Source: a virus
Virus genome (UHGV): UHGV-0375936
Strand: one strand, 5' to 3'
DNA length: 64,000 nucleotides
The notes under the pieces: model-generated
Seen by the model: the letters and a program-made list of their open reading frames with translations, nothing else
Databases searched by the model: none
What the model was told of the DNA's origin: nothing
Program-made: the position numbers and the translations under genes
Shown: in pieces, positions 47,534-64,000 of the stretch
Layout: each line of letters begins with the position of its first letter
How positions within the stretch are numbered: position 1 is the first letter of the stretch

Positions 47534-48499
47534 ATGGAGAAATCCAGTGTTGATTTTTTCTCAATTGGTATCGTCGCGGAAGACAAACCCCGTGGTACAG
47601 ATCGGGTAAAAGTGATACCAATTGAAACCAACTTTGCTAACCCTACCGTGGTGCAATCTGTTTCTTCAGCAACTGAAAAGACGCATGAAACGTCCGGTGC
47701 AACAGATAACCTAACCATTAAGACGGGTAACACGATAACCGCAAAGTGGTGGAAGTTTAACTCCAACCGAATTAATTCCCCTGACGTTAAACGAGAAGAC
47801 TACGTTATCTTGTTGCGTTTGGGGAAAACCGATATTTATTTTTGGATTGATCTGAACTTCGCTAACGTTAAGCGATTAGAAGATGCGGTTTATGCGTGGT
47901 CGGCTGACCCTGAAAACCAAATGGCGGATGACTTGTCCAATGCGTATGTGTTGAACGTTTCGACGATTGACAAACATATCACGCTAAGAACGAGTATGGT
48001 GAATGGCGAGAAAGCGGCGTGGTTGTTTCAGTTTGATAATGCAAACGGTACGTGGCAGTGCGTTGACCATAAAGGAAACAAGTATTACATTAACTCGGTT
48101 GAAGATGATCTCGGGTTTGAGAATGCGATGCTTTCAAAAGTGAACATCAACAAAGAAGATGCGTTCATTTATTCAAAGCGTTCTATTAACCTGGAAACGA
48201 AAACGATTAATGAAAAATGTGAAGTCCGCAATACGGAAGCAGCGAATTCCGTTACGTTTAAAACACAAACCTGGTTAACAGAAGCGGGCAGTTCGACAAC
48301 GTTTAAAACGCCGAACTTTAAACAAGAAGGGAAGGAAGCGATGTTCACCGGTAATTTGGAAATCGCTAAGAACTTCAAATACGGTGGTACGGGTGAAGGC
48401 GTGGGTGTCTTTACGGTTAAAGATGCCATTATTTCCGGTATTACCTTTAGCGTTCACATTCACCAAGGTAAACATGGCCCGACATCACCTCCACAGTAA
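47534..48499 (+). CDS. Hypothetical structural protein (321 aa) with His-rich C-terminus
   Basis: First gene of plus-strand late block; C-terminus SVHIHQGKHGPTSPPQ; function not established. Confidence 0.55.
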   Translation: MEKSSVDFFSIGIVAEDKPRGTDRVKVIPIETNFANPTVVQSVSSATEKTHETSGATDNLTIKTGNTITAKWWKFNSNRINSPDVKREDYVILLRLGKTDIYFWIDLNFANVKRLEDAVYAWSADPENQMADDLSNAYVLNVSTIDKHITLRTSMVNGEKAAWLFQFDNANGTWQCVDHKGNKYYINSVEDDLGFENAMLSKVNINKEDAFIYSKRSINLETKTINEKCEVRNTEAANSVTFKTQTWLTEAGSSTTFKTPNFKQEGKEAMFTGNLEIAKNFKYGGTGEGVGVFTVKDAIISGITFSVHIHQGKHGPTSPPQ

Positions 48500-48706
48500 T
48501 TCCCCTTTTTCTTACGTTGTTTTTATATATTGTGACCTGACGTTGGTAAAACTTTTTATCAACACTTTTCTTAAACCCATCGTTTAGTTAAGCAGGCCAC
48601 TTTTTTTCGCGCACTCTACTCCTCCCTACGGGGAGGAGCTATCTTATGCTTCGGTTGTAACACACGTCGGTCTTAGACCACTAACCTTTTGAAATGGAGA
48701 GCTGTT

Positions 48707-48916
48707 ATGTCTATTAAAGAGTTCTCTTCTGCTGAGCATATTCCAGAAGAGTTTAAGAAAATCGGTAACGTTAGCGCTTTCGGCGATACCGTTGATCATG
48801 TAACTGGTAAACTGGCTGCTGAAGCTGAAAAAATTGGCGGCGACGCATTCAAAGTTATCGGTATTTCCGGCAACAACAAACTGCACGGTAACGCGATTGT
48901 CTACAAAAAAGACTAA
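48707..48916 (+). CDS. DUF1471 (YdgH/BhsA/McbA-like) small protein without signal peptide; probable host-derived moron
   Basis: ATG at 48707 preceded by GGAGAG; mature-domain-like sequence KIGNVSA...GDAFKVIGISGNNKLHGNAIVYKK; codon usage (CTG, GGT, AAA) resembles enterobacterial highly expressed genes. Confidence 0.55.
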   Translation: MSIKEFSSAEHIPEEFKKIGNVSAFGDTVDHVTGKLAAEAEKIGGDAFKVIGISGNNKLHGNAIVYKKD

Positions 48917-48920
48917 GCGA

Positions 48921-48977
48921 AAAAAAAAACGTGCTACTCCTACCCTCTAAGAGGGTAGGAGGTTACTTTATTTTTTT
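48921..48977. terminator. Bidirectional rho-independent terminator
   Basis: CTCCTACCCTC-taa-GAGGGTAGGAG hairpin with A10 upstream and T7 downstream. Confidence 0.7.
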
Positions 48978-50230
48978 CGTGCTCTAAAGCGATGCATTTC
49001 TAAATACACTTTTTCCCAGGGACCGAATGGACCGACGATTGCTTGCGCGTCGTTAATCTTCTTCTGATTATACCACCGGGCTTCACGAAAGACGTAGTTT
49101 TGACTGTCGAACTCTGTGGTGTTAAATACCCACTCACCCTCCTCCCATGTAGGCCAATAGCCCACCGTCTTTCCGAAGCGGTTGTTTAAGTACCCTAACG
49201 GTTTTTCAGAATCAGGATCGTTAGGGTCCTTGAGATAACAACGTCCCCAAACTGCGTTATGCGATACACCCACAACCTCTTCTTCTAAATACGGATTATC
49301 TACCGTAAAGATAAACGAAGACTCGTGGAGTAAAAGCGCCTTTAATGTTTCGGGGTTGCGAATACGTTGGACATTAGTAGGTGTTGATAAATCCCCCACA
49401 CCGATGGCGTCCCAGTCGTAATAGCGACGGGTTTCCAGAACGGTCCGCGCAAGATCAAAATTCGGTAAAGAAATCATGATCGCACGGTCGGAGAAATAAC
49501 CGCCCGGAGGCAACCAACGTAACAGTCCACCGATGACGAAACCCACCGTTTTTCCCGTAATAGATTCGGGTAGCGAAATCATTAACGTGGAGTAATAGTC
49601 ACGTGTGGTGTCGAGCTTGTTTAGGGTAAGGTTGGCAATGGGGTAAGTTTTAACATTCCCTAACTGACCAAAAACCATACAGCCGATATCTGGCGTACAG
49701 GCCCTTCGTACAATTTTACCGGCCCCGGGTAATCGGACACCTACGGTATCTGTCTGATGCGCTACCCATTGACCGTTAATGTTGTACAGTACACTATTAC
49801 GGTATTTGTCCTTCCACTTGTCCTCACAAACGATGACAACGTCATCAGCATCATCTAAGCTGAAATCTTGACTGTGGTGGTACCCCGGCGGACACAGGTA
49901 CGTTTCAACGGGCACGTCAGCATTAATCGATTGGTAATGTGCCCAACTGAATTCGAGTTTCGGCAATCCGGCCTTTAGAGTGGGGATGACGTTTCCGGCT
50001 TTTTCATTTAACCAATCTTGTAAAGTGTCTGTTCGGTTTTGTAGTTCGGCAAGATGGTATTGGCTGACTAACGTATAGTCTTTACCAAGTGCACTTAAAC
50101 CGATCTCAAAGGTGTGGTAGTCTGAACACAACGTATTTAAGGGTTGCGTGACATCGATGGCTCCCCAGGTACGGGACTCTCGAGAGAAGCCAAAAGCGCT
50201 GTCGGGCCGCACTTGATAAGCAGTAGTCAC
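48968..50230 (-). CDS. Hypothetical protein (420 aa), minus-strand gene within late block
   Basis: Long ORF convergent with DUF1471 gene. Confidence 0.6.
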   Translation of the reverse strand: MTTAYQVRPDSAFGFSRESRTWGAIDVTQPLNTLCSDYHTFEIGLSALGKDYTLVSQYHLAELQNRTDTLQDWLNEKAGNVIPTLKAGLPKLEFSWAHYQSINADVPVETYLCPPGYHHSQDFSLDDADDVVIVCEDKWKDKYRNSVLYNINGQWVAHQTDTVGVRLPGAGKIVRRACTPDIGCMVFGQLGNVKTYPIANLTLNKLDTTRDYYSTLMISLPESITGKTVGFVIGGLLRWLPPGGYFSDRAIMISLPNFDLARTVLETRRYYDWDAIGVGDLSTPTNVQRIRNPETLKALLLHESSFIFTVDNPYLEEEVVGVSHNAVWGRCYLKDPNDPDSEKPLGYLNNRFGKTVGYWPTWEEGEWVFNTTEFDSQNYVFREARWYNQKKINDAQAIVGPFGPWEKVYLEMHRFRARKK

Positions 50231-50298: not shown

Positions 50299-53200
50299 AT
50301 GGCTGTCGTCCTAGACCCACACTTCAAAAAACCGGGGAATAAAATAACCGGTGAAGCGGTCGCCGTCATTGGTACGAAATACCGAATGTTGGTACCTGCC
50401 CACGCCCCTTTTTTCACCACATCCCTGGTGGTCAAGAGCGGCGGCAAAACACTGACCTTAGGCGACGATTACATTATTACACACCCGTACGAGACCGGTA
50501 TGTTGCGCACAGCCTATCTCATTCACGGGATGATTTGGATTGTTAATGACAAATACAAATCGAATTTTACGGTAGATTACCACGCCGTTGGTTGTGGTCA
50601 GGCTACCCAACAACAGATTACCGCAGAACGCGAACTCAATAAAGATAAATACCCGACTACGTGTCAGTGGGACACCGTCATCGGGGACGTTTACTTTCCG
50701 CCGGTCGATATCCAGTTCGATTGGGAGAATTGGAAAGGTGAACTGGAATTAATGCAGGCTATTGCTGGATTAGGCGATTCGTTAGGGGAAGTCGTGAGTC
50801 GACTTAACCCCATCGCACGCAATACCCTGGATTTAGAATACCGTGCTAACAGCAAGGTTATCACTTCCGAGCAGTATGCCGCATACGACAATAAAGGTGG
50901 GTTCACCTACAACACTACCCGTCATCGTTATAGCTTGAGTTATAAAACTGCAACCTTTAACGACTACGCCCTGTCAGTGAAACATAGAATTCCTGCTATT
51001 CTGCCAGACATGACGAAATTGAATCCAAACGAACAGATCGATTGGATGCTCTGTTATGCTAACGGCGGGGCAAGTATTCTACGGCTGCAGCTAAAACAGC
51101 GCAAAATCTCACTGGTCTTAACGGTCGCTATTGGTAGCGGTTCAACAAACTACGATTATACGTTAATCAACGGTTTAACTGACGATGAGTTAAAAAACGA
51201 TATCGATTTTAGTGTAACCCGTCAACCCGGAAACGGTGTTTACGTCATCGTAGTAAAAACAAATAAACAGACCATGGATTACACATTCAACGTCGATACG
51301 CCGCCTGATGAGTTCTCGGCAGGGTATTCGAAAACGGATGTTGCTAAATGGTTGAAGTCTAAAACGAACATTAACCTGAACTGGTATGCTGGACAAAAAG
51401 ATTATGTTCAAATTCGTTCTTTACCCGGCGCACCAGAACCTGACGTCGACAACGATGTTTACCAGTTAATAGTTAAATACCATCAATTAGTTGAGCAGCT
51501 GTATCGTAACGCGCCTGCACACGAACACGTTACACGTAAGGACAACCCGCACACCGATACGTGGGGCCCGATCCGTGCGTTACAGCTGAATGGTATTGCG
51601 TCGGATGCCGCGTTAGCTTACGGGAAAACGAAACAACAGTTAACGGATTATGTTAATGCTAAGTACCCAACACAAGCAACGTTAACCGCACAGAAAAAAC
51701 TGCTTCGTGAATCGGCGAACAAGAACGTTAACGGCACGATTACCACACTTCCGGGTTTTACTTCGTTCACGACGGAAGTTGATCCGGTTTCGATGTCGAA
51801 ATACGTGAGTCCTAGTTTTAGCGAAAGCTACGTTAGTAATGGTCACAGGTATCACGGTGCGCTTCGTTACACAGGAACGAAAAGCGGTTTCAGTGCTAAC
51901 TTTAATGCGGTGCCTGCCAACCTGCAAGATATTGACTTTATTGTTACCGGACGTAAAACAGCGTCTGGTAACGAAGCTGTCGGTGCAGTTGGTTTGCGTT
52001 TCTACGAAAACCCCGGTAGTAACTCCGGTAAGTTTGTAGAGATTAACGGACAAATCTGGGCTGGTACCCTTACTATCAGTCTGACATTGAACGGTTACGG
52101 GAGTCCGTTACCGTCGGTGCGTTATATTTCTCAAGCCCCTAATCCGGCAATACCGGATGGAGATTTTACGCTACGTTTTCAACTGAAGCGTACAGGGAAC
52201 GTGTTTGACGTCGTTATTACCGTAAACGGTAAAACGTATAGCGCCCGGATTAACTTCAATAACATGGACGCTGCGTTAGAAGCATTAGAGAATCAGCACC
52301 ACTTTAAATCGCTGATCAATAATGTTGCCGATGGCGTCAAAATTAGTTCGCAAAACAAAGGTAACACGGTTACCATTAAGAAAGCACCGGATGTCGTTGA
52401 CGGAACTCGTTTAGGTGCCCAGTTTGTCGTTGATCCGAAATCCATTAAGTTTATTGGCCAAGGTTCAACTGATGTTAACGTAGGAAATAACCCCGTAACG
52501 TTCCAAGCAGGTACTAACCAGCTTATGTTGTATCCTGACGATCGTGGGTTACAGTGGCGTGGTAAAAAACTCTTAGACCCTACCACCGTGGCCCCGTATC
52601 TGCCAGGTAATACCGCAGGTGGTACCGGTTTATTCTACGCAAGCTCGACAACAACAGTTACGATCACTGGTAGCGGGATAAAAGCTTCGCCGTTCGTAGC
52701 GACCTTTATTCTCCCTACCGCGACCGATACAACGGCTCTGGCAGCTTGGCAGTTGACCGATGAGTTCGGTACTGCTGAAAACCTTGCAGCAACGCCAGCA
52801 CTGATTGAAAAACTGGATGCGGAGTTCACCGGTAAGTTAGTTGCAGTTAAATCGTACATTAACGACATGCAGCTTACCAGCTCGGTTACTATCGATAAGA
52901 TTACCTTCGGTTTAGGTAATGTTGCGAATACGCCCGATGTCAATTTACCGATTTCTACAGCACAGCGTGCGGAGTTAGATAAATACTCGCCTAAGGTTCA
53001 CCAACACCCGTTTACCGCTTTTGGTACCGGGAACGCAACCACAGCGAAACGCGGTCTGATTAAATTTGGTCTGGATGTGGATGATGCGACTTTAGCACTC
53101 GATGGGAGTGTGGTAATGGCGCAGACTTCCCAGATTGAAAAATTGGAGAGTGCTGTCGGCGGCGTTGACTCGGAGGCACGTCTTGATATCATACGTTTTG

Positions 53201-54621
53201 GTGAGTCTGGTAACGACTTAATAGACGTTACGGTCAAAGACAAAATTCTGGTCACGCTTCCAGCTTCAACGTATTTTATCGGTGGCGAAACGTACACCGT
53301 ACCGTTGATGACGATTAACGTTAGTGAACGTTTTCCGAAATTGAATACAGAGATCTACGCGGGGATTTTTGTTGATATTGTTGATAACAAAGCGAAGTAT
53401 ATTATCCACGACAGCTACAGTCAGGCCGAAACGGATACCATGACGCGTGTGGGGTTGATCGGCGTCAACGACCTTTCTGAGGTGTTCGTTACAGAGATGC
53501 GTAATGTCACACGGTTGGGTGATTTCCGTGAACTGAAAGATCATAAAGCCGATGACAACGCACACATTCAGCGCTCCGCATCACGTGCAGCGCTTGGGTT
53601 AGCTAACTTAACCGTAGGTGCGCCTTGCTGGGCTTCTGGACTCCAGGCAGTAGTACGCGGTGAAGCAGATTGGCGTTATGTTGCCGGTGGACAGTATAAA
53701 GCTTTAGACGGGGTGAAATACGACCAGCTCGCATCCAAGTGGATTTTTGACGCGAAAGGGGTAAGCGATAACCTACACGGGTTTATCCACAACATGTTCC
53801 CAGCTTTTAAGAACGCAGGAATGCGGGTAAGTTGGGAAACAGAAAGCAACGCAAAAACCGGCACGGTGTTAGAAACTGTTTTAGGTTGTTGGAAAAACAC
53901 CGACGGCGAGTTTATGCGGTTGTCGTTACTTATCACTCGTGGTTATCGTTTAACTGACAGCAACGGTGAGTATTGTTACGCAGGGTTCGGTTTGAACTTC
54001 GGTAGCGGGAAATCGGTAGTGTTAGGTTTCACACCAACGAAGCGTGTTACGCCTGCACCGTGGAATACGTTACAACCTGACGTAACGTTTACCCACACCC
54101 GTGCTGCAAATAACGCATTAACGTTTAACGCAACACTGACCTTAGCGGGCACTACGTATACCGTCGTGGTGTTTTTATCTGCGACAGATAAATACGTAAG
54201 CTGCACGGCAGCAGGGGGAGCTACGCAGAAAATCCCTCTAACTGACCGTTTAACAGGGTTCAACCTCGCACCTATCGTTAACGATCCGTATACCCCTATT
54301 TACTACGGTTTAGGGGGACTTTATGAGGATGAGGTTCGTGCCAACATCCGTTCTACGGCAGACAGCGCAACCGCGAATAAAGTCTACGGTACGTTGTTAG
54401 ACTATATTAGCAACTATTCCTCATTAAATCGTGTGCGCGTTATGGAATTGAGCGGTGTCAGTTCAGACCCCGAAACGCTTAATGCGTTAGTGGCAACTGA
54501 ATTTAATAACAACCTGGCGGATTACGCCGCGTTACCGATACCTTCTTATCTTAACAAGGAGCGCGTAATGTCGTTTATCGACACCAACAATAAAGTGCAG
54601 GCGGTAATCATTCGCGATTAA
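50299..54621 (+). CDS. Giant tail fiber protein A (1440 aa)
   Basis: Tail-fiber motif FGLGNVANTPDVNLPISTAQRAELD...HQH; ATTAKRGLIKF repeat; N-terminal module VPAHAPFF..LVV...LGDDYI shared with next two ORFs. Confidence 0.75.
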   Translation: MAVVLDPHFKKPGNKITGEAVAVIGTKYRMLVPAHAPFFTTSLVVKSGGKTLTLGDDYIITHPYETGMLRTAYLIHGMIWIVNDKYKSNFTVDYHAVGCGQATQQQITAERELNKDKYPTTCQWDTVIGDVYFPPVDIQFDWENWKGELELMQAIAGLGDSLGEVVSRLNPIARNTLDLEYRANSKVITSEQYAAYDNKGGFTYNTTRHRYSLSYKTATFNDYALSVKHRIPAILPDMTKLNPNEQIDWMLCYANGGASILRLQLKQRKISLVLTVAIGSGSTNYDYTLINGLTDDELKNDIDFSVTRQPGNGVYVIVVKTNKQTMDYTFNVDTPPDEFSAGYSKTDVAKWLKSKTNINLNWYAGQKDYVQIRSLPGAPEPDVDNDVYQLIVKYHQLVEQLYRNAPAHEHVTRKDNPHTDTWGPIRALQLNGIASDAALAYGKTKQQLTDYVNAKYPTQATLTAQKKLLRESANKNVNGTITTLPGFTSFTTEVDPVSMSKYVSPSFSESYVSNGHRYHGALRYTGTKSGFSANFNAVPANLQDIDFIVTGRKTASGNEAVGAVGLRFYENPGSNSGKFVEINGQIWAGTLTISLTLNGYGSPLPSVRYISQAPNPAIPDGDFTLRFQLKRTGNVFDVVITVNGKTYSARINFNNMDAALEALENQHHFKSLINNVADGVKISSQNKGNTVTIKKAPDVVDGTRLGAQFVVDPKSIKFIGQGSTDVNVGNNPVTFQAGTNQLMLYPDDRGLQWRGKKLLDPTTVAPYLPGNTAGGTGLFYASSTTTVTITGSGIKASPFVATFILPTATDTTALAAWQLTDEFGTAENLAATPALIEKLDAEFTGKLVAVKSYINDMQLTSSVTIDKITFGLGNVANTPDVNLPISTAQRAELDKYSPKVHQHPFTAFGTGNATTAKRGLIKFGLDVDDATLALDGSVVMAQTSQIEKLESAVGGVDSEARLDIIRFGESGNDLIDVTVKDKILVTLPASTYFIGGETYTVPLMTINVSERFPKLNTEIYAGIFVDIVDNKAKYIIHDSYSQAETDTMTRVGLIGVNDLSEVFVTEMRNVTRLGDFRELKDHKADDNAHIQRSASRAALGLANLTVGAPCWASGLQAVVRGEADWRYVAGGQYKALDGVKYDQLASKWIFDAKGVSDNLHGFIHNMFPAFKNAGMRVSWETESNAKTGTVLETVLGCWKNTDGEFMRLSLLITRGYRLTDSNGEYCYAGFGLNFGSGKSVVLGFTPTKRVTPAPWNTLQPDVTFTHTRAANNALTFNATLTLAGTTYTVVVFLSATDKYVSCTAAGGATQKIPLTDRLTGFNLAPIVNDPYTPIYYGLGGLYEDEVRANIRSTADSATANKVYGTLLDYISNYSSLNRVRVMELSGVSSDPETLNALVATEFNNNLADYAALPIPSYLNKERVMSFIDTNNKVQAVIIRD

Positions 54622-54631
54622 GGAGAATTTT

Positions 54632-57600
54632 TTGATGAAAGCGTATCCTTACGATCCTCGGGGGACGAAAGCCGAGAATCACTTCTTAGAGGAGCGTATC
54701 ATCGGGTCAGAGAACAACAACGATCGGGTGGTGATTTTAGACCACCGCCCGTTCTTTGAAGATTTGGTCGTCAGACAACCAGGTTCAACCACCCCACTGA
54801 GTCGTGGGGTGGACTACGAACTGCAATATCAGCTGACGGAACTGGATGACTCGGTAGCAGCCAACGTGTATTGTGGGGTACACCTTATCAACCCATCCAT
54901 CAAAGGCATCGTAACCTTTGAAGGACAAATGCTCGGCGGTACGTTCTACGACCCGTTTGTTGATATTCTCGATGAACTGGTGAAATATTTGAATAACCCT
55001 GTCAGTGCTGACTGGTTGTTATTAGACGGTAGACCATCGTTATATCCAGCGACGCCAGCAGCAACGTCCTGGGCGGATTTGCTGAACAAAAAATATTTAG
55101 CGTCGGCAGTTCACGATATTGAATTGAAAACCGACGACGCTAACCAGTTAATTAAAGACAAATTAGCTGAAGTTAAAGCGTTAGTGACTGCGTTGGGTAA
55201 AGAAATCGAAGCATTTAACTACCCGGCACATATCGCGGAAACCAACCCACACAAAACCACATCCGCGCAGATTAACGCGCATCCTGTTAACTTGAAAACA
55301 CCCGACACCTTTATGGCGTACGGGTTAAAGTTGAAAGCGCTGACGGATGAGCTGAAAGCGTTTCGTTTACCCCAGTCAGTTATCGACACGTATATCTCTC
55401 ACTGGATTTCTTCGGAAGTACGTGGCGTGTTTAACTGTACGGTGTCAGGAAACCGCGCACAGTTCCGTTCGAAAAACGGTGAGTCAGAAATCATTTTTGC
55501 CAACGATGGTTTTACGTTAAAATCCAACGGTTCTGTGGTATTAGCGGTAGGGCATCTGGAAGGTACGGGTGCAGGACGTTACATTAATTGGCGTGCCGGT
55601 AAAAACACATTACGCATCGAGTCAACAGGCGATGCTTTAGGGATGAACAAACTCACCCTGAACGGTAACCCGTTACTGACTACCACGGCGTTGATGGAAT
55701 ACCAACAAGATCCAGATGCGGGTTCTGGTGGCGGTGGCGACCCTGATGACTCGAAGGTGTACATTGAAGGCCGTAATGGGATTAGCTTTACCGGTAAAGG
55801 TTCTCGCGCCGACCCTATCGTGGGGACTATCGACCCAACAAAAGCGACAACCGCCGAAAAAGGCGTCGCTAAACTTAAAACAGGTAAAGGTACAGAAACG
55901 ACTGGGGTTGCTGCAACTCCGGCTTCGTTAGCACCATACTCGACTGACCTATCGGGGTATGTGGCTAAAACGACCATGATTAACGGTAAGCCGATGAACG
56001 ACGGCTCCAGGACAATCACGAAAGCTGATCTGGGGTTAGGGCAAGCGAATAACACCGCAGACGTTGACAAACCGTTGTCTACCGAGTTAAATGCGGCGCT
56101 TAGCGGCTTAGCGGATGCAGGCCACCACCACGATTGGTCGGAACTCGGCATTTATAAAGCCTCGCAATCCGTTTACGGTATCGGTCGTTACGCAACTAAC
56201 CAGAACGGTTTGGTTGAAAACCGTGCGGTAGTACCGAACATCTTAAAAGAACTTTCGGCGCGTTTAGATGTGGTTGCTGCGGCGATTGCAAACGCGAAAG
56301 AAGGATCGGTAACGGATTTCGCTGCGGTAAAAGGCGCAGAGTGGCGCTTTAATAGTCAGGGTACGGCAATCTCCGTTCAAGATTTGAAGTATTTCTATTT
56401 GCTGAACGGTACGAAAGCTGATAGCACCGTTACAGGTTCGATTGACCTGCAAACTACGCCGATGTTTAACTGGTTCTCACCGAACAACCAAATTGAGACG
56501 ACTTGGCCTACGGGGAAAGTGAGCGCTGGTAAGGGTATTAACTGGACAGGTATTGAAGAACCACCACTAATGGGTTTCCAATCTGTTCCGGTAGGTAAAA
56601 CTGCCTCACAGATGGGTGACCAGTCAGTTGTTACTGTGTTGGCCAAAACGCGGGTAAGGGCACACCAGTCGAAGCTTTGGGTTTATGCCGCAGGGGGTGG
56701 TCCGGTTACAGTTTACATTAACGGTATCCAGGCAGCCACAGGCCAGTCTCCACTCGTTGCAGTGCATGAAACATCAGCAGACGTTGAAAACTACACCGTA
56801 GCGGTTAAAGCTGAGTGTAGCGACACAGCTAAATCCGCAGCGGTGCAATTCGAAATTTACGACGGTGACTACCCCGTTTATTTCAGTGGCCCTGAAACGC
56901 GCGTAGAGCTTCTCCAAGAGTTTGTTACAACACACGTAGGGATTCGTCATTATCTGTACGTTAACATGCTCACAAGCTCTCTGTATTCGCGTACTGAGCC
57001 AATTCAGAGTGTTGCAGTTGATCCTGAGCGCGGTTATATCGGCTACGTTGATATTGTTGCCGGTGAGTCTTACGCGAATAAGAGCGTGAGTTTTGAAACC
57101 ACGTTTGATTTCGGGAAAAGTGCCGAGGTTAGTGAACACATTGACACACGCAAAGCACACGGACTCAGCTCTGTAGACTGGACGTTAACGGATAACCCAC
57201 GTTTCCCGTTATTAAATCGTGCGATTGCAGAGCCGAGAACGTGTATTTTTAGAAAAACGTTAACGGCCGGTACTGGTGACGTTTTTCATCTCGTGAGTCG
57301 TGGTCTTTATACTTACGCACATAACCAAAACGTGAAGTCCAGTCTTCAATACGTTGTGATACCTGAAGGTGCTACACCGTATTGCTGGTTTACGCCGTTT
57401 AACCCGAAAGAAAACAACGCACCGACGTTCGAAGGTTCGTTTGTGTTCGACGTTGACGACGTCGGTGGAACACAAGCGCTCACGGCTGCACCGGATTTGG
57501 TGCTGTGTACGTCAACACAAGGTAGCAGCGTTAAACGTCGTTACGTACGTATTGACCTAACTGCCAAAGCGTGTAAGCTGGGGATTGGTTCTCGTTCAGA

Positions 57601-58816
57601 TTCTGCGGTTACGGATATCCCGTTAGTGATGGAGGAATCTGGGGAAACGGCGGTGGCGGCAACGTTTAAGGATGTGTTGTTCAACGGCGAGGAAACCAAC
57701 GCAGCGATACTCGACTTGATAGGCTGGGGTCCAAATAAAGACAAAATCTCTGCAAACCACGCGCCACGAGGTATGATTCGTTATCGTTACAACGTAAACA
57801 CTCGGGTATTACGTTTAGCACTATCGTTCTCACAGTTCGGAACGACAACAGTTAAGCACCGCCAGTTGGAAATTGAATTTCCGTTTGATTTGGTGGATTA
57901 CTTCACCGGTGACGGTGTAGGATTGTCGTTTAAAGAACTGTCTGCGAAATGCCGTGTAACGATTAGCCACGCACTGATTGATCCGGTTACGACTAAAATC
58001 GATATTGATAAGTATCATTACCTACGCTCGTTATTTGAGTCGTATTTGGATGCATCTGTTGGTTATTTGGCTGATACCAAAGACGCCGACTTTAACCAGT
58101 CTGTGATTGACCCTGCGACTTATGAGATTAATCAGAAATACCGCGTTACCGAAAGCATTGCGCTGCCGACCGGTCAGGGAAGTGTTGCTGTTTCCCATGA
58201 CGGTCAGTTACCTGCACAGTTCTTTGACCGTAAGCTGTCTCGCGGTGCTTTGATGGCCAAGAAAGGTGAACTTCATACTTCCTGGAACAATGAGTGGAGT
58301 ACATCCAAAGCTGCCGCAAACCGGTATCGACATAAACTCATTCTGCGCTTTGCACAAGGTGCTGATAAACAACAGTACCGTGTTGCAAAAGTGACAGGAA
58401 CGGTGAAGTGTAACTGGCCGGGCAAGGTGATTATCGGTGATGCTGGGAAGGACGCGTATGTATCAGCTATCGATAGCGTGCCGTTTGCGCTTTCGACCAG
58501 CGCGGACACAGGTAAAGCAGTTACCCTTACGCCAAAGGATCTACGTGTAGGGCAGGACATTTATATTGTCTTAGAACCACCAGGCAATAATCCAGAAGGC
58601 TACGAGCTTAACTTTACCTGTTCGTTAGATGTCACTGACGAGAAAGGTGTCCGTCAAGACCAGCTCAATGCGCAGAGTTTCGAACTCCGTAGCGGCGAAA
58701 GTCAGTTCTTAATGGAGAAACGCAATCCGTACCACATCACGAGTAAAGCGTGGAAGTGGATTCTGGCTGTACTGAAACGAGAACTTAACGGGAAGCAGTT
58801 AGGGGATCGTACTTAG
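54632..58816 (+). CDS. Giant tail fiber protein B (1394 aa)
   Basis: LGLGQANNTADVDKPLSTELNAAL...HHHDW; KATTAEKGVAKLKTG repeat; Gly-rich GSGGGGDPDD; AAGGAG RBS. Confidence 0.75.
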   Translation: MMKAYPYDPRGTKAENHFLEERIIGSENNNDRVVILDHRPFFEDLVVRQPGSTTPLSRGVDYELQYQLTELDDSVAANVYCGVHLINPSIKGIVTFEGQMLGGTFYDPFVDILDELVKYLNNPVSADWLLLDGRPSLYPATPAATSWADLLNKKYLASAVHDIELKTDDANQLIKDKLAEVKALVTALGKEIEAFNYPAHIAETNPHKTTSAQINAHPVNLKTPDTFMAYGLKLKALTDELKAFRLPQSVIDTYISHWISSEVRGVFNCTVSGNRAQFRSKNGESEIIFANDGFTLKSNGSVVLAVGHLEGTGAGRYINWRAGKNTLRIESTGDALGMNKLTLNGNPLLTTTALMEYQQDPDAGSGGGGDPDDSKVYIEGRNGISFTGKGSRADPIVGTIDPTKATTAEKGVAKLKTGKGTETTGVAATPASLAPYSTDLSGYVAKTTMINGKPMNDGSRTITKADLGLGQANNTADVDKPLSTELNAALSGLADAGHHHDWSELGIYKASQSVYGIGRYATNQNGLVENRAVVPNILKELSARLDVVAAAIANAKEGSVTDFAAVKGAEWRFNSQGTAISVQDLKYFYLLNGTKADSTVTGSIDLQTTPMFNWFSPNNQIETTWPTGKVSAGKGINWTGIEEPPLMGFQSVPVGKTASQMGDQSVVTVLAKTRVRAHQSKLWVYAAGGGPVTVYINGIQAATGQSPLVAVHETSADVENYTVAVKAECSDTAKSAAVQFEIYDGDYPVYFSGPETRVELLQEFVTTHVGIRHYLYVNMLTSSLYSRTEPIQSVAVDPERGYIGYVDIVAGESYANKSVSFETTFDFGKSAEVSEHIDTRKAHGLSSVDWTLTDNPRFPLLNRAIAEPRTCIFRKTLTAGTGDVFHLVSRGLYTYAHNQNVKSSLQYVVIPEGATPYCWFTPFNPKENNAPTFEGSFVFDVDDVGGTQALTAAPDLVLCTSTQGSSVKRRYVRIDLTAKACKLGIGSRSDSAVTDIPLVMEESGETAVAATFKDVLFNGEETNAAILDLIGWGPNKDKISANHAPRGMIRYRYNVNTRVLRLALSFSQFGTTTVKHRQLEIEFPFDLVDYFTGDGVGLSFKELSAKCRVTISHALIDPVTTKIDIDKYHYLRSLFESYLDASVGYLADTKDADFNQSVIDPATYEINQKYRVTESIALPTGQGSVAVSHDGQLPAQFFDRKLSRGALMAKKGELHTSWNNEWSTSKAAANRYRHKLILRFAQGADKQQYRVAKVTGTVKCNWPGKVIIGDAGKDAYVSAIDSVPFALSTSADTGKAVTLTPKDLRVGQDIYIVLEPPGNNPEGYELNFTCSLDVTDEKGVRQDQLNAQSFELRSGESQFLMEKRNPYHITSKAWKWILAVLKRELNGKQLGDRT

Positions 58817-58852
58817 GACAGACTGCCTGCGGGCAGTTGTGTGTCCGTAGGT

Positions 58853-58892
58853 AACCCCTCCCTGTAATGGGGAGGGGTATCCATTTTATTTA
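58853..58892 (+). terminator. Rho-independent terminator/attenuator between tail fiber genes
   Basis: ACCCCTCCC-tgtaatg-GGGAGGGGT hairpin followed by ATCCATTTTATTT. Confidence 0.55.
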
Positions 58893-58910
58893 AAAGTAGG
58901 AGTCTTTACG

Positions 58911-61900
58911 ATGCCGAGAGAAGACGCGGCGCAGTTTAACGGTACGCTAAGCACAACGACGTACCCTAACCGATTTAACGTGGTCATTCCGCCTGAAGGA
59001 CCTTTTTATCGTATCGGATTAAAACTCACAGTAGCCGACGATACCGCGCCTAACGGACGTCGTACTCTGATTGAGGGGTTGGACTACTATTTAGGCTATT
59101 ACTTTAAAGAACTCGCAGAAGCTGAACAAGATCAGATTTATGGCGGGTTTATGTTGCTTACTGCAACAGAAATCGAATATGAGATTTTAGGGGTAGCACG
59201 TCAATACCGTGTACCGCAATCTGAAATCGGGAAGTTCTTAGTTCGTACTGACCTGAAAGACCCACGTAACGTGGACTGGTCAGAGTTAATGGCGTATGCG
59301 CCAGTTATTCAACCTATCGATCCCCCTGCTAACTTAGAAGAAGCTATCCTGAGGGATGAGGTTGTTAAAGCGTTAAACGATATCCGTAAGAAAATCATTC
59401 AACGTTCAACAGAGTTAGATGCAGCGTTTACCGAAGTCACTAACCTGATTTACGAGAACGGTAAAAAGATTTTCGATGAAGAACTATACCAACACCACCT
59501 TAATCCTAACGCTCACCAGTATACGACCACTGATGTTGGTGCTCTTCCGGTTTTGGGACGTGCTGTTGACGCGACAAAAGCGTTTGGACTGACGATTGAC
59601 CAGCTGGCTACGCTGATGGGTTCGGCGGGTATTGAGCAATCAGACGTTGATCAGTTAATAGGTGAAGCCCTCGGCACTGTTTACGGTCGTTGGGGCAGCA
59701 CGAACGGTAACGAACTGACGTTTAAAACCGCAGGCGGACACATCATCAGTATCCGTGGTGATAAGTGGTTAATTACCTCACCGCAACCGTTGGTGATTAA
59801 AGCAGACCAGGACAACAACGAATCGGGTTTGGCGGTTGAATTTAGTGCGGGGCTGAATACGCTTTGGGTACACTCTGGGACAGAACAAGATGTATTAGCG
59901 CCGGTTTACAACTCTGTGTATTTGGTTACACCAGAAATGGTGAACATGTACCTTACGTCTGTAACGTTACTTGAAGCAAATGCCTATTTCAAACCATCAG
60001 ACACCGTAAAACCATACGGTACAGCGAAGCAGTCTAATCCGCTAACGTTGAACGCGAATATCCCCACAGCAACCGAGTCGGTTTATGGGGTGTTTTCGAT
60101 TACGAATATCGCAACCTCCGTAGCACTAGGCACTGCTATTTCCCAAAAGGCGGTGACCGAATTAAAAGACCGGTTAGACTTGTACGTTGACGATGACTAC
60201 ACGGTTAACGGTAAAGGGTTTGTTAAGACAGGCGATAAAATGGTGTTAACCTTAACGAAAACCGATTTCGGTATCGATAAGATGGATAACACCACGCCGA
60301 TCGCTAAACCGGTAACAAAAGCGTTAGCGAATGTGCTGAAAAATAAAAGTTTGAAGGTGCATACGCACACTACCGCCGATTTGGATAATGTCCCGATTGG
60401 TAGTGCGACCGTGGATGGTATCTTACAGCTGTGGGATGCGATTGATACCACGAATGATAAAGCCGTCACATCACGCCAAGGGTGGTTGTTCGCAAAAGAG
60501 ATTAAGAAGGTCTCTGATAAACTGAATACCCTCTTGCCCGCATGGACAACGTCCGGGAGCAAATACACCAATAATTCGATATTGCCGATCTTGTCGATGG
60601 GTAATTACGAAGGTTATGGTAAAAACATGGATGCGCTCCAGATGGTTATAGGGGTACAACAAGGTAAGCTTTATGCTTTAATTAGTTCTAAATCTGCCCT
60701 TCCGGGAACTGAGGGTATTTATTACGCTGTTGCTGGGTTAAAAAACGACAAAAGTCTCGGTGAAATTTACAAAACAACTTTCCGTTATAAGCCGAAAGGG
60801 TTAGAGACGAATTATCCGGGGGTGGAACTAAAAGAAATTACCGTTACTGGCACCGAAGCATTTATAGCGAAGGGCAGCGACGATAATTATTATTTAGTTA
60901 AACTGAACGGTTCAATGGATTACACCAAACATACCGATGTCAGGTTGGTAACTTTCTCAGAATTTGTTTCAGAAACAACATGGGAATTTGTGCCGAATAT
61001 GTTCATGGATCGTGTGGTCATAGCCGATAACGGCGTCTATGTTTTGCGTACGATGCTAATGGCCGATCTGAAAAACAATAGTCTGGTGGACTACATTAAG
61101 GATACTCCGCAACCTATGTTCCGTGTTGGGTTATTGCGACTTAATAAAACCGATCGGTTTGAACAGGTTGATTTAAGCTCTACACGAAAAATCGGTAAGT
61201 GTGCCGATTTGGTTGAACCTGGCGCGTTCGATGTAGATAATCCGAATACGAAGCGTCTTGCCTACTTCACTGCGGAAGGCAAAGCGTTGTGGACAGTGAA
61301 TTTACAATTAACTAGAGGGGTGTCAAGATGGATAACGCCCGTTGTTAAGGACGGTCACTTGTTAACCGTCGGCGTGTCTGGCGTTTGTCTTGGTTTTTCT
61401 TCAACGAAAGGTACCACATTCGGGCCATGGAATGGTGCTTATCGTCTCGACCTATTAACCGGGGAGGTTGGGTTAGAGACAACTAACATCTTCCCAATCA
61501 AAATCGATACTACAGGTTGCTACTTAAAAGACGGAACAAAAATAGAGCTGAAATGGAAATGGGCTACTCGAAGTTCTGGCTATATGGCCGACAATAGAAT
61601 CTGTGTCGGTGATATGGTTTATTCTTGCTGCTGTTCGACAGAAAAACAACTTGCACCGTCTCTCCATTACCAGAAACTCCCAGAAGGAGTTAGTTATCTG
61701 GACTATGTTAAGTTGAGTGCGGGGTATGAGGGGCAATCTACGTTTGAAAATCGGATAAACCCTGTGGTGGGTTCGGTGTGGAAACCGTCTATGACCTTCC
61801 CATTGTTCTTCCCAGGAACAAACAAAGTATGGCTTAAACATCAAAAAACGGCTTATTTCATTGAAGCCGAATATGATAAAGATACGACTTATGGTTATCC

Positions 61901-64000
61901 TGGATACGGCGGGTTTGGACCAACATCCCGCCGTGTTGAAAAAAAAGCGAACGAATACGGCGTATTGACAAATATACCGCTGGTTGTTACGCCAGACATA
62001 CCGAAAGGTCTACTAGATGGGGCTTACTTTATCGGTGCTGAAAGTAAACCATGTAAAGTTGTTTACGGTACCACTACGGTGGCTAGTGATCGGTTGTCTA
62101 TCGATGCGGCAGAATGGGCGAAGTTGACTAATATTGTTCAGTCCAGCCAGTTCTCTGGGGCTTCTAACGGCAACGCCTATGAGCGGATTAGCGTAGCTAA
62201 GACCAAAAAGAACAACTACAGTTTGTCCTTTTGGGTGCTTGGTCAAACGATGTCTGGTGGTCCGCTTTGTATCGCGATAGTGAGTCTTATCTATAAAGAC
62301 ACTGACGGGGTAAATAAGTTTGCTTTTTACTTCTTTCAGGTAAAACCGACTATAACCAACGGGGTCATAAGGTTCGTTAGTTCGGAAGCGAGAATGATGA
62401 CGTTCAGGGAAAAAGTGGCCAGTAACGCCATTAATCTCTCACCCACAGCTTTTAATGGTGAACTTAAACAACGCTCCGGTCAAGTTTTCCTTTATTCGCA
62501 AGACGGACAAAAGTTCAGATTCTCAATACATAACCTGGTTGGCGGGAATCTTGTAGGATCAGAGATTTCTTTTGCTTTTGGGATAAACTTGACTAAAAAA
62601 GGAGAATGGTTTACCGGCGAAATTCATCGGGCGTGGGGCTATACGTATACGCTGAATAATACATCTGAAGTCTATATACCCGATCTCTCGGGCATCGCGC
62701 TATTGACTTGTAACTCGGAAGATTTAAACGAGTTGTATCTCGGTGGCGAACAGTATAGAATCTCTGATTTGTTTAACAAAAAATATACTGTTATCGATAA
62801 GATTATTATTGGCGGCGTACAAACACAGAGCGGTTGGAATTTCTATCTGACGGAGGAAACCGAGTTAAGTTTTGGAAATAAAAGATATACCGTTCCAAGA
62901 TGGTCCGTTGATTTAAGCGATGAATTCCCGACTAATCACGCTAACCAGACATTCTACGTTTATGCTGAAGTGGTCGGTTCTACTGCCCAATACCGCATCG
63001 GTTTAGAGCAGTTAGCTGATACCTCGTCGAGACTGTTTGTTGGGACAGTAACCACTGATTCGAACCGTATTACGGATATCAGTATCGATAAAGTAAAACG
63101 GTTAGGTCGTGTAAAAGAGCTGGAAAATCATGCCTCGGTTGTTGATCAGCACGATGTGGCGCAGGCGTTCGACAGGAAAACTGGTCCACTATTAACAGTG
63201 GTTAATAAACCCGTTAAAGCCATTACAGCATCTGCGAGCAAGGGTGCTGGGTATGTCGATGGCCAGAAATGGAATACGTTGTCCGGGATTGCAACGCGGC
63301 CCAGGTTGCCGGTACAGGAAACCTATTCAGGTTATAAAAGTATCAGCAGGGTGGCGTATGAGAACTGCGCTGACCAGTTCTGGCAGAAAGCGGTTGCTGC
63401 GAACGTTGCAGCGGCTACTGCTTCTGAGAACAAACAAGCAGCAACCGCGAACATGAAGTGGTTGGGTGCGTATACGAAACCGACTACCGGCGAGTATGCA
63501 TATCTGGCATTGAGTCTGCGTGTTAAAGTACCTGGCGATCCTGGTACTACTAATCGTCGACTGAAAATCAGGCTTGCGGCCCCGACAGGTATAACTCAAG
63601 TTCGTTACGGGCTAAATCAGTCTGGCGGTACGATGACTGAACAGACAGTAACGCTAACTGCTAACAGTTACCTGGAAAAAGAACACGCGGGATTTAAGCC
63701 AGCCGCCGAAGTCCGCCTTCATGCTACGTTTGTCATTCCAAAAAATGAATACGATAGCTACCGGACCAAATTTGGTGCTGTTCAGCTGATTGACGTTGAG
63801 ACGAACACTGTCATTAAACAGACAGATATCGACACACCGTTTATCGTGTACACCGCCACAGAGCAAGCGGCACAATCTGGTTTGGTGTATAAAGCGGTTA
63901 AGAGTCAGTTTCGTCAACTCCCGGCTCAACCTGTCGTCATTGTAACTGATGGACAGACAGGGACTACACCACCGGTGAAAACCGCATATTCTGACGGCAC
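58911..64000 (+). CDS. Giant tail fiber protein C, 3'-truncated by window (more than 1690 aa)
   Basis: AGGAG before ATG 58911; frame open to window end (no ORF stop listed); N-terminal module VVIPPEGPFY...GLDYYLGY; DNTTPIAKPVTKALANVL...HTHT motif. Confidence 0.7.
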   Translation, partial: MPREDAAQFNGTLSTTTYPNRFNVVIPPEGPFYRIGLKLTVADDTAPNGRRTLIEGLDYYLGYYFKELAEAEQDQIYGGFMLLTATEIEYEILGVARQYRVPQSEIGKFLVRTDLKDPRNVDWSELMAYAPVIQPIDPPANLEEAILRDEVVKALNDIRKKIIQRSTELDAAFTEVTNLIYENGKKIFDEELYQHHLNPNAHQYTTTDVGALPVLGRAVDATKAFGLTIDQLATLMGSAGIEQSDVDQLIGEALGTVYGRWGSTNGNELTFKTAGGHIISIRGDKWLITSPQPLVIKADQDNNESGLAVEFSAGLNTLWVHSGTEQDVLAPVYNSVYLVTPEMVNMYLTSVTLLEANAYFKPSDTVKPYGTAKQSNPLTLNANIPTATESVYGVFSITNIATSVALGTAISQKAVTELKDRLDLYVDDDYTVNGKGFVKTGDKMVLTLTKTDFGIDKMDNTTPIAKPVTKALANVLKNKSLKVHTHTTADLDNVPIGSATVDGILQLWDAIDTTNDKAVTSRQGWLFAKEIKKVSDKLNTLLPAWTTSGSKYTNNSILPILSMGNYEGYGKNMDALQMVIGVQQGKLYALISSKSALPGTEGIYYAVAGLKNDKSLGEIYKTTFRYKPKGLETNYPGVELKEITVTGTEAFIAKGSDDNYYLVKLNGSMDYTKHTDVRLVTFSEFVSETTWEFVPNMFMDRVVIADNGVYVLRTMLMADLKNNSLVDYIKDTPQPMFRVGLLRLNKTDRFEQVDLSSTRKIGKCADLVEPGAFDVDNPNTKRLAYFTAEGKALWTVNLQLTRGVSRWITPVVKDGHLLTVGVSGVCLGFSSTKGTTFGPWNGAYRLDLLTGEVGLETTNIFPIKIDTTGCYLKDGTKIELKWKWATRSSGYMADNRICVGDMVYSCCCSTEKQLAPSLHYQKLPEGVSYLDYVKLSAGYEGQSTFENRINPVVGSVWKPSMTFPLFFPGTNKVWLKHQKTAYFIEAEYDKDTTYGYPGYGGFGPTSRRVEKKANEYGVLTNIPLVVTPDIPKGLLDGAYFIGAESKPCKVVYGTTTVASDRLSIDAAEWAKLTNIVQSSQFSGASNGNAYERISVAKTKKNNYSLSFWVLGQTMSGGPLCIAIVSLIYKDTDGVNKFAFYFFQVKPTITNGVIRFVSSEARMMTFREKVASNAINLSPTAFNGELKQRSGQVFLYSQDGQKFRFSIHNLVGGNLVGSEISFAFGINLTKKGEWFTGEIHRAWGYTYTLNNTSEVYIPDLSGIALLTCNSEDLNELYLGGEQYRISDLFNKKYTVIDKIIIGGVQTQSGWNFYLTEETELSFGNKRYTVPRWSVDLSDEFPTNHANQTFYVYAEVVGSTAQYRIGLEQLADTSSRLFVGTVTTDSNRITDISIDKVKRLGRVKELENHASVVDQHDVAQAFDRKTGPLLTVVNKPVKAITASASKGAGYVDGQKWNTLSGIATRPRLPVQETYSGYKSISRVAYENCADQFWQKAVAANVAAATASENKQAATANMKWLGAYTKPTTGEYAYLALSLRVKVPGDPGTTNRRLKIRLAAPTGITQVRYGLNQSGGTMTEQTVTLTANSYLEKEHAGFKPAAEVRLHATFVIPKNEYDSYRTKFGAVQLIDVETNTVIKQTDIDTPFIVYTATEQAAQSGLVYKAVKSQFRQLPAQPVVIVTDGQTGTTPPVKTAYSDG

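Follow-up and report, generated by a model that had tools for sequence, protein, structure and literature searches.

Three giant genes lying one behind the other at the end of a viral sequence raise the question of what their products are, how they attach to the virion and which of them selects the host. The sequence concerned is a 64,000-nucleotide stretch of the genome UHGV-0375936, called the window throughout, and the three open reading frames (ORF1, ORF2 and ORF3) extend from position 50,299 to its end. An original prediction, made from the letters alone, took them for tail-fibre genes encoding either three distinct, perhaps switchable, fibres or one long fibre in several segments. Its sequence assigns the window to a jumbo phage that is a relative of SPN3US, a phage of Salmonella; the triad consists of SPN3US-like members of a published family, and the gene set itself is not new. 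What is newly found is that an internal cassette of ORF3 has been swapped between otherwise near-identical phages. The best overall explanation, which we hold with moderate confidence, is a set of baseplate fibre proteins that would be anchored in parallel and assemble together, with ORF3 bearing a specificity module. The analyses below show orthology, synteny, the modules in common, where the cassette begins and ends, and the class of fold; location in the virion and tail is taken from the literature on the orthologues, and co-assembly and glycan binding are the steps that we infer.

The triad, its family and the shared N-module

The locus is laid out as follows.

48968..50230, - strand: divergent gp171/gp130-like gene, 420 residues, just upstream of ORF1
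50299-54621, + strand: ORF1, 1440 residues, its ATG preceded by AGGAG
54635-58816, + strand: ORF2, 1393 residues from the ATG at 54635, orthologue of SPN3US gp169
58911..64000, + strand: ORF3, ATG at 58911, 1696 codons in the window, orthologue of SPN3US gp168

Three back-to-back giant ORFs are indeed present, with a small correction to ORF2. Its mechanical listing (54632-58816) begins at the TTG at 54632 and gives the 1394 residues originally counted, but the likely start is the ATG at 54635, since this sits 8 nucleotides past an AGGAG and the protein has 1393 residues in all public gene calls. Only 13 nucleotides separate ORF1 from ORF2. ORF3 leaves the window with its frame open, as had been anticipated; in a Logan contig of 98.9% nucleotide identity the stop comes 32 codons later, for a total of 1728 residues, and is followed by a 399-residue gene. 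The prediction had pointed to stops in the extended frame as a possible weakness, and in the sequence extended by this contig there is none before residue 1728.

BLASTP pairs ORF1 with SPN3US gp170 (68% identity over residues 1-494, 45% over 705-1440), ORF2 with gp169 (48%, full length) and ORF3 with gp168 (42% over residues 1-1545). The divergent gene is the orthologue of gp171, an essential tail protein (76% identity; phrog_3337), and a homologue of phiKZ gp130 (E = 3e-12), and the gene at 47534-48499 corresponds to gp173, a "baseplate assembly protein" (61%; phrog_3216). The gene order, with the gp171-like gene divergent and then gp170-, gp169-, gp168- and gp167-like genes, recurs in SPN3US, in Erwinia phage Kwan (genus Wellingtonvirus), in an E. 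coli "plasmid" copy and in IMG/VR contigs, two of which have the triad order at only ~41% identity. Even between genera with orthologues only ~40% identical, the triad is strictly single-copy and its order does not change. In SPN3US-like and Erwinia jumbo phages, tblastn picks up relatives over the full length, with 42-54% identity.

Profile searches agree with a structural role. Among PHROGs, ORF1 matches phrog_7557 ('virion structural protein', E = 0), ORF2 phrog_8078 (E = 0) and ORF3 phrog_7449 (positions 1-1677 of 1714), and the matches of the three are limited to virion structural, tail and tail-fibre families. None of the ORFs was assigned a non-fibre function, the outcome that the prediction had suggested looking for; in particular, a virion RNA polymerase was rejected, there being no match to RNA polymerase beta/beta' profiles in Pfam or PHROGs. 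The tailspike depolymerase class was likewise set aside for want of a right-handed parallel beta-helix. Pfam gave nothing above threshold for the whole proteins or ten sub-segments, the best suggestive match being a faint one to "Phage tail repeat like" (E = 0.04), and PDB sequence searches, run with the individual proteins and a profile of 54 family sequences, found no match even at E <= 1.

In SPN3US, gp168, gp169 and gp170 form "Paralog family C", low-abundance virion proteins with spectral counts per mass of 1.08, 1.41 and 1.00, near-equimolar and similar in abundance to the portal; they were labelled "baseplate/tail fiber candidates" from their likeness to phiKZ gp131 (Ali et al. 2017, PMC5694885). 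All three are missing from a tailless mutant (PMC5694885; PMC5105663). gp171 is essential and gp168 "expected essential", and amber mutations in genes 168, 169 and 171 were recovered from a conditional-lethal pool (Thomas et al. 2016, PMC5105663). For the SPN3US and phiKZ orthologues together, location in the virion and tail has been established by mass spectrometry, the tailless mutant, immunogold labelling and cryo-EM (PMC5694885, PMC5105663, PMC13250141).

The phiKZ gp131-gp135 family, described by Sycheva et al. 2012 and in a cryo-EM structural atlas of 2026 (PMC13250141), supplies the closest structural guide. Twelve fibres stand on the phiKZ baseplate; the base of a fibre, beneath the outer-baseplate protein gp130, unites six N-domains of the gp131 type with a bundle of six helices. 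The candidate model of this base is a hetero-hexamer, gp131x3 + gp133 + gp134 + gp135, and the gp131 propeller lies at the distal end (PMC13250141). The N-termini of ORF1 and ORF2 each match the gp131 N-domain with E = 4e-9 (BLASTP), and the gp168-family profile matches gp131 residues 35-237 (95.7% probability, E = 9e-9; hhalign). The phiKZ homologue of gp168 has been tabled as ORF145 (PMC5105663, Table 4). We rejected gp145 as the counterpart: hhalign shows no similarity of the gp168 family to phiKZ gp145 or gp146, and its match is to gp131 only. The identity of the three as tail-fibre genes, borne out by orthology to gp170, gp169 and gp168 and by the gp131-like N-domains, is one in which we have high confidence.

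By their sequences, the three proteins are also homologous to one another, far beyond chance. A colinear N-module of ~500 residues (BLASTP, hhalign) is common to all and consists of the anchor, a putative helix/NPH segment and a shaft in which the fibre motif and H-x-H lie. BLASTP aligns ORF2 29-505 with ORF3 20-491 (E = 5e-19) and ORF1 780-924 with ORF2 377-521 (E = 3e-11); profile-profile comparison of the families by hhalign aligns ORF2 33-518 with ORF3 24-505 (E = 2e-34), ORF1 27-922 with ORF3 21-506 (E = 3e-14) and ORF1 with ORF2 (E = 3e-14). The predicted N-terminal segment P..PF(F/Y)...G.DY is seen in the alignment of all three. In the segment after the anchor the motif reads HIAETNPH in ORF2 and HHLNPNAH in ORF3, with the variant HEHVTRKDNPH in ORF1; the stretch before it would, by analogy, be the counterpart of the phiKZ bundle helix. 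H-x6-H, which also follows the anchor in the phiKZ paralogues, occurs at residue 1082 of ORF1, 200 and 836 of ORF2, and 195 and 1407 of ORF3, and in each protein a second copy is far downstream, inside or near the module 2 described below; its recurrence may mark repeated trimer or metal-site junctions.

Each protein has a single copy of the fibre motif, at the following positions.

52909..53007, + strand: ORF1 fibre motif GLGNVANTPDVNLPIS (residues 871-886) with HQH at 901, together residues 871-903
56033..56131, + strand: ORF2 fibre motif GLGQANNTADVDKPLS (residues 468-483) with HHH at 498
60270..60368, + strand: ORF3 fibre motif GIDKMDNTTPIAKPVT (residues 454-469) with HTH at 484, together residues 454-486

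From the start of the motif to H-x-H the distance is exactly 30 residues in all three, and none of 2000 shuffles matched a loose regular expression of the motif. The original claim of a consensus motif followed by an H-x-H cluster in every ORF stands as regards presence; the strict consensus fits ORF2 alone, ORF1 and ORF3 being degenerate. H-x-H is the metal site in the homotrimers of T4 gp37 and gp12.

The exchangeable cassette of ORF3

ORF3 divides into four parts.

58911..60548, + strand: N-module, residues 1-546, with gp131-like anchor, putative helix with HHLNPNAH and motif shaft; 88-100% identical in close relatives
60548..62802, + strand: exchangeable cassette, residues ~547-1297, beta-propeller-rich
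62802..63290, + strand: module 2, residues ~1298-1460, common with ORF1; a beta domain, then KRLG..EL..H-x6-H
63318..63860, + strand: C-terminal beta-sandwich, residues ~1470-1650, like lectins or carbohydrate-binding modules (CBMs)

Compared with close relatives, ORF3 is either 99% or only ~61% identical. In sliding windows, identity is 80-100% (mostly above 85%) over residues 1-540, 12-48% per window (about 30% overall) over residues ~541-1320 and mostly 56-98% over residues ~1321-1696. At the nucleotide level the flanks of the cassette are 76-95% identical and the breakpoints, at 60547/60548 and 62802/62803, are sharp and the same in three relatives (L007, L005 and L009). Module 2 begins right at the 3' breakpoint. 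Across alleles the length of ORF3-type proteins is steady at 1726-1728 residues.

The cassette allele of the window is 27-31% identical to every other allele and recurs only in one relative (L008) and in the 103-member P0121 cluster; the others, those of SPN3US and an Erwinia phage included, are 45-95% identical to one another. In all, ORF3 alleles fall into six clusters with ~965 members, of which 103 are window-type and 803 of the common type, represented for example by L007. A protein homology search found 58 relatives of full-length ORF3. HMMER, run over 1.84 billion cluster representatives, detected no more than 17 cassette relatives, the best 37% identical. In 14 of the 17 the alignment extends for hundreds of residues and the position corresponds, 12 in gp168-like proteins of 1490-1900 residues and two in proteins of 1223-1378 residues; the other three comprise a 98%-identical match of 46 residues in a 454-residue fragment and two weak matches of ~40-50 residues in proteins of 756-932 residues. 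Because its best relative is only 37% identical, the window allele looks like a replacement that came from elsewhere in this family, from a deep branch not yet sampled. The GC content of the cassette (43.2%, against 46-48% in the flanks and 44.8% in the window) was rejected as an argument for foreign origin, being too close to its surroundings to stand alone.

Structures were modelled with AF2 as monomers from a 54-sequence alignment. The cassette is modelled with confidence as a beta-propeller-rich unit, a fold common to many glycoside hydrolases, phosphorylases and sialidases, including the endosialidase of phage phi92. When it was compared by Foldseek with predicted viral structures, the whole model was matched end to end by ~900-residue virion structural proteins of Pectobacterium phage CBB, Erwinia phages PhiEaH1 and Joad and Serratia phage BF (E = 1e-20 to 5e-32, TM 0.60-0.74, ~860-940 columns); these differ in being separate proteins rather than an internal cassette, are 11-14% identical and have no annotated function. 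Residues 1301-1696 (pLDDT 81 overall) open with a small beta domain (1301-1395), continue with helical sequence of low confidence that contains H-x6-H and lead to a well-predicted beta-sandwich (~1470-1650) that resembles lectins, CBMs and domains of phage receptor-binding proteins (RBPs). In these models the fold resemblances fit carbohydrate recognition, without proving it.

ORF1 and ORF2 vary in other ways. Among close relatives they are 84-97% and 90-93% identical, respectively, and the N-module of ORF1 is colinear with the others yet broken by two inserted domains.

50299..50778, + strand: ORF1 gp131-like N-terminal anchor, residues 1-160, PFF...G.DY; matches phiKZ gp131 residues 11-169 (BLASTP E = 4e-9)
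50779..51453, + strand: ORF1 inserted domain 1, residues ~161-385; in SPN3US gp170, missing from two more distant orthologues (L011 and L012)
51781..52410, + strand: ORF1 inserted domain 2, residues ~495-704; lineage-specific, ~210 residues
53218..53715, + strand: ORF1 module 2, residues ~974-1139, common with ORF3; RLG..EL..H-x6-H

In the region of the first insert, residues 181-360, sliding-window identity to the L011 and L012 orthologues is 0%, and hhalign is colinear across the gap. The second is absent from SPN3US gp170, where the alignment skips from 492 to 500, and is the most variable part of ORF1 (69-98% identity among close relatives); a role as a further element of specificity is conceivable. 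For this insert tblastn found no homologue in 50,697 phage records, nor was a donor or paralogue found in the relatives' loci examined or in those records. No significant internal repeats were seen among five ORF1 regions (best hhalign E 0.03-0.08). Module 2 links ORF1 974-1089 with ORF3 1298-1414 (E = 2e-11, hhalign) and, by BLASTP, ORF1 994-1139 with ORF3 1321-1460 (E = 4e-6). In ORF2 the N-module covers residues ~1-525 and the C-terminal ~830 residues are specific to the gp169 family; a faint counterpart of module 2 at residues ~819-868, with HIDTRKAH, is not significant (hhalign E 0.02-0.2). Among 120 near-identical homologues, ORF2 has a hot spot of variability at residues 1251-1300 (window ~58382-58531; mean identity 75%, minimum 60%, versus ~90-99% elsewhere), and in relative L007 a block of ORF2, residues 841-1200, has diverged to 55-83% identity.

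How the three proteins may assemble

Comparison with three known systems frames the question of assembly. With SPN3US the window shares one-to-one orthologues (42-68% identical), gene order and orientation, the divergent gp171, the downstream gp167 and a ~95-nucleotide gp169-gp168 spacer with a hairpin; it differs in the ~210-residue ORF1 domain (residues 495-704) that gp170 lacks, in a cassette only ~27-30% identical with the last ~150 residues of ORF3 unaligned, and in belonging to a ~222-kb "Seoul-like" lineage outside Seoulvirus proper. With phiKZ gp131-gp135 it shares the homologous N-anchor followed by a putative helix and H-x6-H/NPH, the adjoining divergent gp130 homologue and, at the level of fold type, a propeller-type distal domain, seven-bladed in gp131 and propeller-rich in the ORF3 cassette. 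The phiKZ family, in contrast, comprises five smaller paralogues (110-771 residues) with a large distal domain in gp131 alone, whereas the window has three giants of 1393-1728 residues with a ~500-residue shared N-module and extra modules; beyond the N-module, BLASTP and hhalign detect no similarity to the phiKZ family. T4 fibres (gp34-37 long, gp12 short) are likewise baseplate-attached fibrous adhesins with H-x-H metal-site-like motifs, and the phiKZ authors compare gp131 fibres in function to the T4 short fibres (PMC13250141). The T4 long fibre is serial and T4 tips are needles or collars; here all three proteins have an anchor, as in a parallel arrangement, and the distal domains are of propeller and sandwich type.

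Each protein begins with a gp131-like anchor, continues with a putative helix and H-x6-H (...NPH) and leads into a shaft with GLG..N.T.D..KP.S / H-x-H. By analogy with phiKZ, the N-domains and helices may dock in parallel beneath the gp130-like protein encoded divergently next door, giving a fibre base of mixed make-up, with six N-domains and six bundled helices. The distal parts differ: two globular inserts in ORF1, its own ~830-residue C-terminal part in ORF2, and in ORF3 the ~750-residue propeller-rich cassette followed by the lectin/CBM-like beta-sandwich. Homologous recombination in the conserved flanking modules would replace the cassette, and its replacement via such flanks makes ORF3 probably the main host-specificity determinant, binding a surface glycan. 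We are fairly confident of parallel rather than end-to-end attachment, because all three proteins carry the baseplate anchor. That the cassette is a specificity module is reasonably probable, and a mixed oligomer, suggested by the phiKZ analogy, strikes us as an evenly balanced proposition. Only tentatively do we combine these elements into one mixed complex per docking site, in which ORF3 would have a plug-in receptor-binding cassette between fixed recombination arms; the arms, equally tentative as part of this joint reading, would be the shared N-module and the module 2 shared with ORF1.

Several points weigh against this co-assembling fibre set with its ORF3 specificity module. The virion location is carried over from orthologues that share only 42-68% identity, the phage itself being known from sequence alone. 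The phiKZ mixed-oligomer model is itself a "candidate", a rigid-body fit at ~4.5 A (PMC13250141). The accessory paralogues of phiKZ are short (~460 residues) but all three are giants here, so that stoichiometry may differ or each may form homotrimers, and oligomeric state is beyond the reach of a monomer model. No Asp-box or other conserved catalytic signature was found in the propeller region of the cassette. As to any link of cassette type with host, the named members of the window-type cluster, few in number, come from Shigella flexneri and Salmonella; those of the other cassette types, also few, are chiefly from Salmonella and E. coli, Enterobacter and Proteus each contributing one partial record. 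Finally, ORF1 and ORF2 have variable patches too, and specificity may be spread over the three.

The most serious alternative, unlikely in our judgement, is that the three are independent homotrimeric fibres or tailspike-like RBPs, each inserted at a separate baseplate site by its own gp131-like N-domain and each recognising a different receptor. Each protein does have a large unrelated distal region, some variable patches among close relatives and a single H-x-H, a possible homotrimer metal site as in T4 gp37 and gp12. The phiKZ atlas, moreover, places two docking sites on each star lobe (PMC13250141). Yet alternative RBP sets would be expected to show gain and loss, not a one-copy, same-order triad across genera. 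The conditional-lethal amber mutations in SPN3US 168 and 169 (PMC5105663), the absence of any transposon insertion from each of the phiKZ paralogues gp131-135 (PMC12676376), both signs that single paralogues are essential rather than redundant, the six N-domains per phiKZ fibre base, modelled as a mix of paralogues (PMC13250141), and the low, near-equimolar, portal-like abundance of SPN3US gp168-170 (PMC5694885) all speak against it as well. The strict order, the amber mutations and the insertion-free phiKZ genes also make the switchable fibres of the original prediction a poor fit. Of its wider proposal the fibre nature has held up; the shared anchor and the conservation of the triad make neither three distinct fibres nor a multi-segment fibre the best reading.

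It is improbable that the three are instead structural or enzymatic proteins of the baseplate periphery, such as scaffolds or glycan-degrading propeller enzymes, with receptor recognition elsewhere, for example in the gp167-like protein. The published label goes no further than "baseplate/tail fiber candidate" (PMC5694885), and the propeller fold is also that of the glycan-active enzymes mentioned above. In phiKZ, however, the gp131-like N-domains form fibre bases and the gp131 propeller is distal (PMC13250141); cassette replacement between conserved flanks is typical of receptor-binding modules, the C-terminal sandwich is like those of lectins, CBMs and RBPs, and no catalytic motif is conserved. 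Least credible of all is a single long fibre of three segments joined end to end like T4 gp34-gp37, since, for all the large size of its adjacent co-oriented genes and the short ORF1-ORF2 spacer, a serial fibre needs an anchor on its proximal segment only, the gp131-like anchor is on all three, and the T4-type fibre families were rejected, with no Pfam or PHROG match to T4 fibre segments, hinge proteins or chaperones.

Surroundings, lineage and significance

The spacer between ORF2 and ORF3 contains a further conserved element.

58854..58878, + strand: 11-bp GC-rich stem-loop with T-run, in the 94-nucleotide ORF2-ORF3 spacer; RNA fold z-score -6.4

It is followed by TAGGAG and the ORF3 ATG, and SPN3US and Erwinia phage Kwan have retained both the hairpin, with compensatory changes, and the T-run. 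The sequence suggests a putative intrinsic terminator or attenuator separating ORF3 expression from that of ORF1-ORF2. Similar CTCC...GGAG hairpins lie at 48937-48961 and 48619-48638, near a small upstream gene. This gene (~48707-48916, + strand, ~69 residues), between the baseplate gene and the gp171-like gene, is of the DUF1471 or YdgH-BhsA-like family of bacterial stress and outer-membrane-associated proteins, and is kept at the same spot in SPN3US, Kwan and the E. coli plasmid copy. At the other end of the window, the ORF at 41-2770 (+ strand) matches only the C-terminal positions 1490-2407 of a 2408-position profile for the phiKZ gp181 type of tail protein, a giant that includes a transglycosylase domain. 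Evidently the window begins inside this gene, and the PHROG label of the family, "tail fiber protein", is misleading; phiKZ gp181 is annotated as a tail-associated endolysin.

Megablast against the 50,697 phage records gave only short matches of 71-76%, to Erwinia and Salmonella jumbo phages, and the phage itself is not in that isolate-phage collection. ORF2, on the other hand, has counterparts 92-100% identical in over 100 protein clusters, on contigs of ~220-225 kb that stem from isolate assemblies of Salmonella, Shigella and E. coli and from gut metagenomes. Phages related to it with 84-85% nucleotide identity appear in databases as circular "plasmids" of ~222 kb, assigned to E. coli and Enterobacter ludwigii; the relatives cited are NZ_CP173450.1 (L005) and NZ_CP134650.1. 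Such ~222-kb "plasmid" relatives fit the "Seoul-like persistent jumbo phages" of bioRxiv 10.1101/2024.12.31.630880 and PMC12768965.

To a gene set already catalogued this analysis adds little; the cassette polymorphism, the lineage-specific insert of ORF1 and the fold assignments are incremental additions, and a domain map is now supplied for proteins without Pfam or PDB coverage. The three-paralogue system is also a place to check the phiKZ idea of a hetero-hexameric fibre base. In a lineage met very often in isolate assemblies of Salmonella, E. coli and Shigella, the recombination-bounded propeller cassette of ~750 residues in the gp168-type protein is the likeliest switch of host specificity, which makes host-range engineering or prediction testable. 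If this is true, persistent Seoul-like jumbo phages could shift host specificity by swapping an internal block of ~2.25 kb, with the baseplate anchor and the C-terminal lectin-like tip retained through each exchange.

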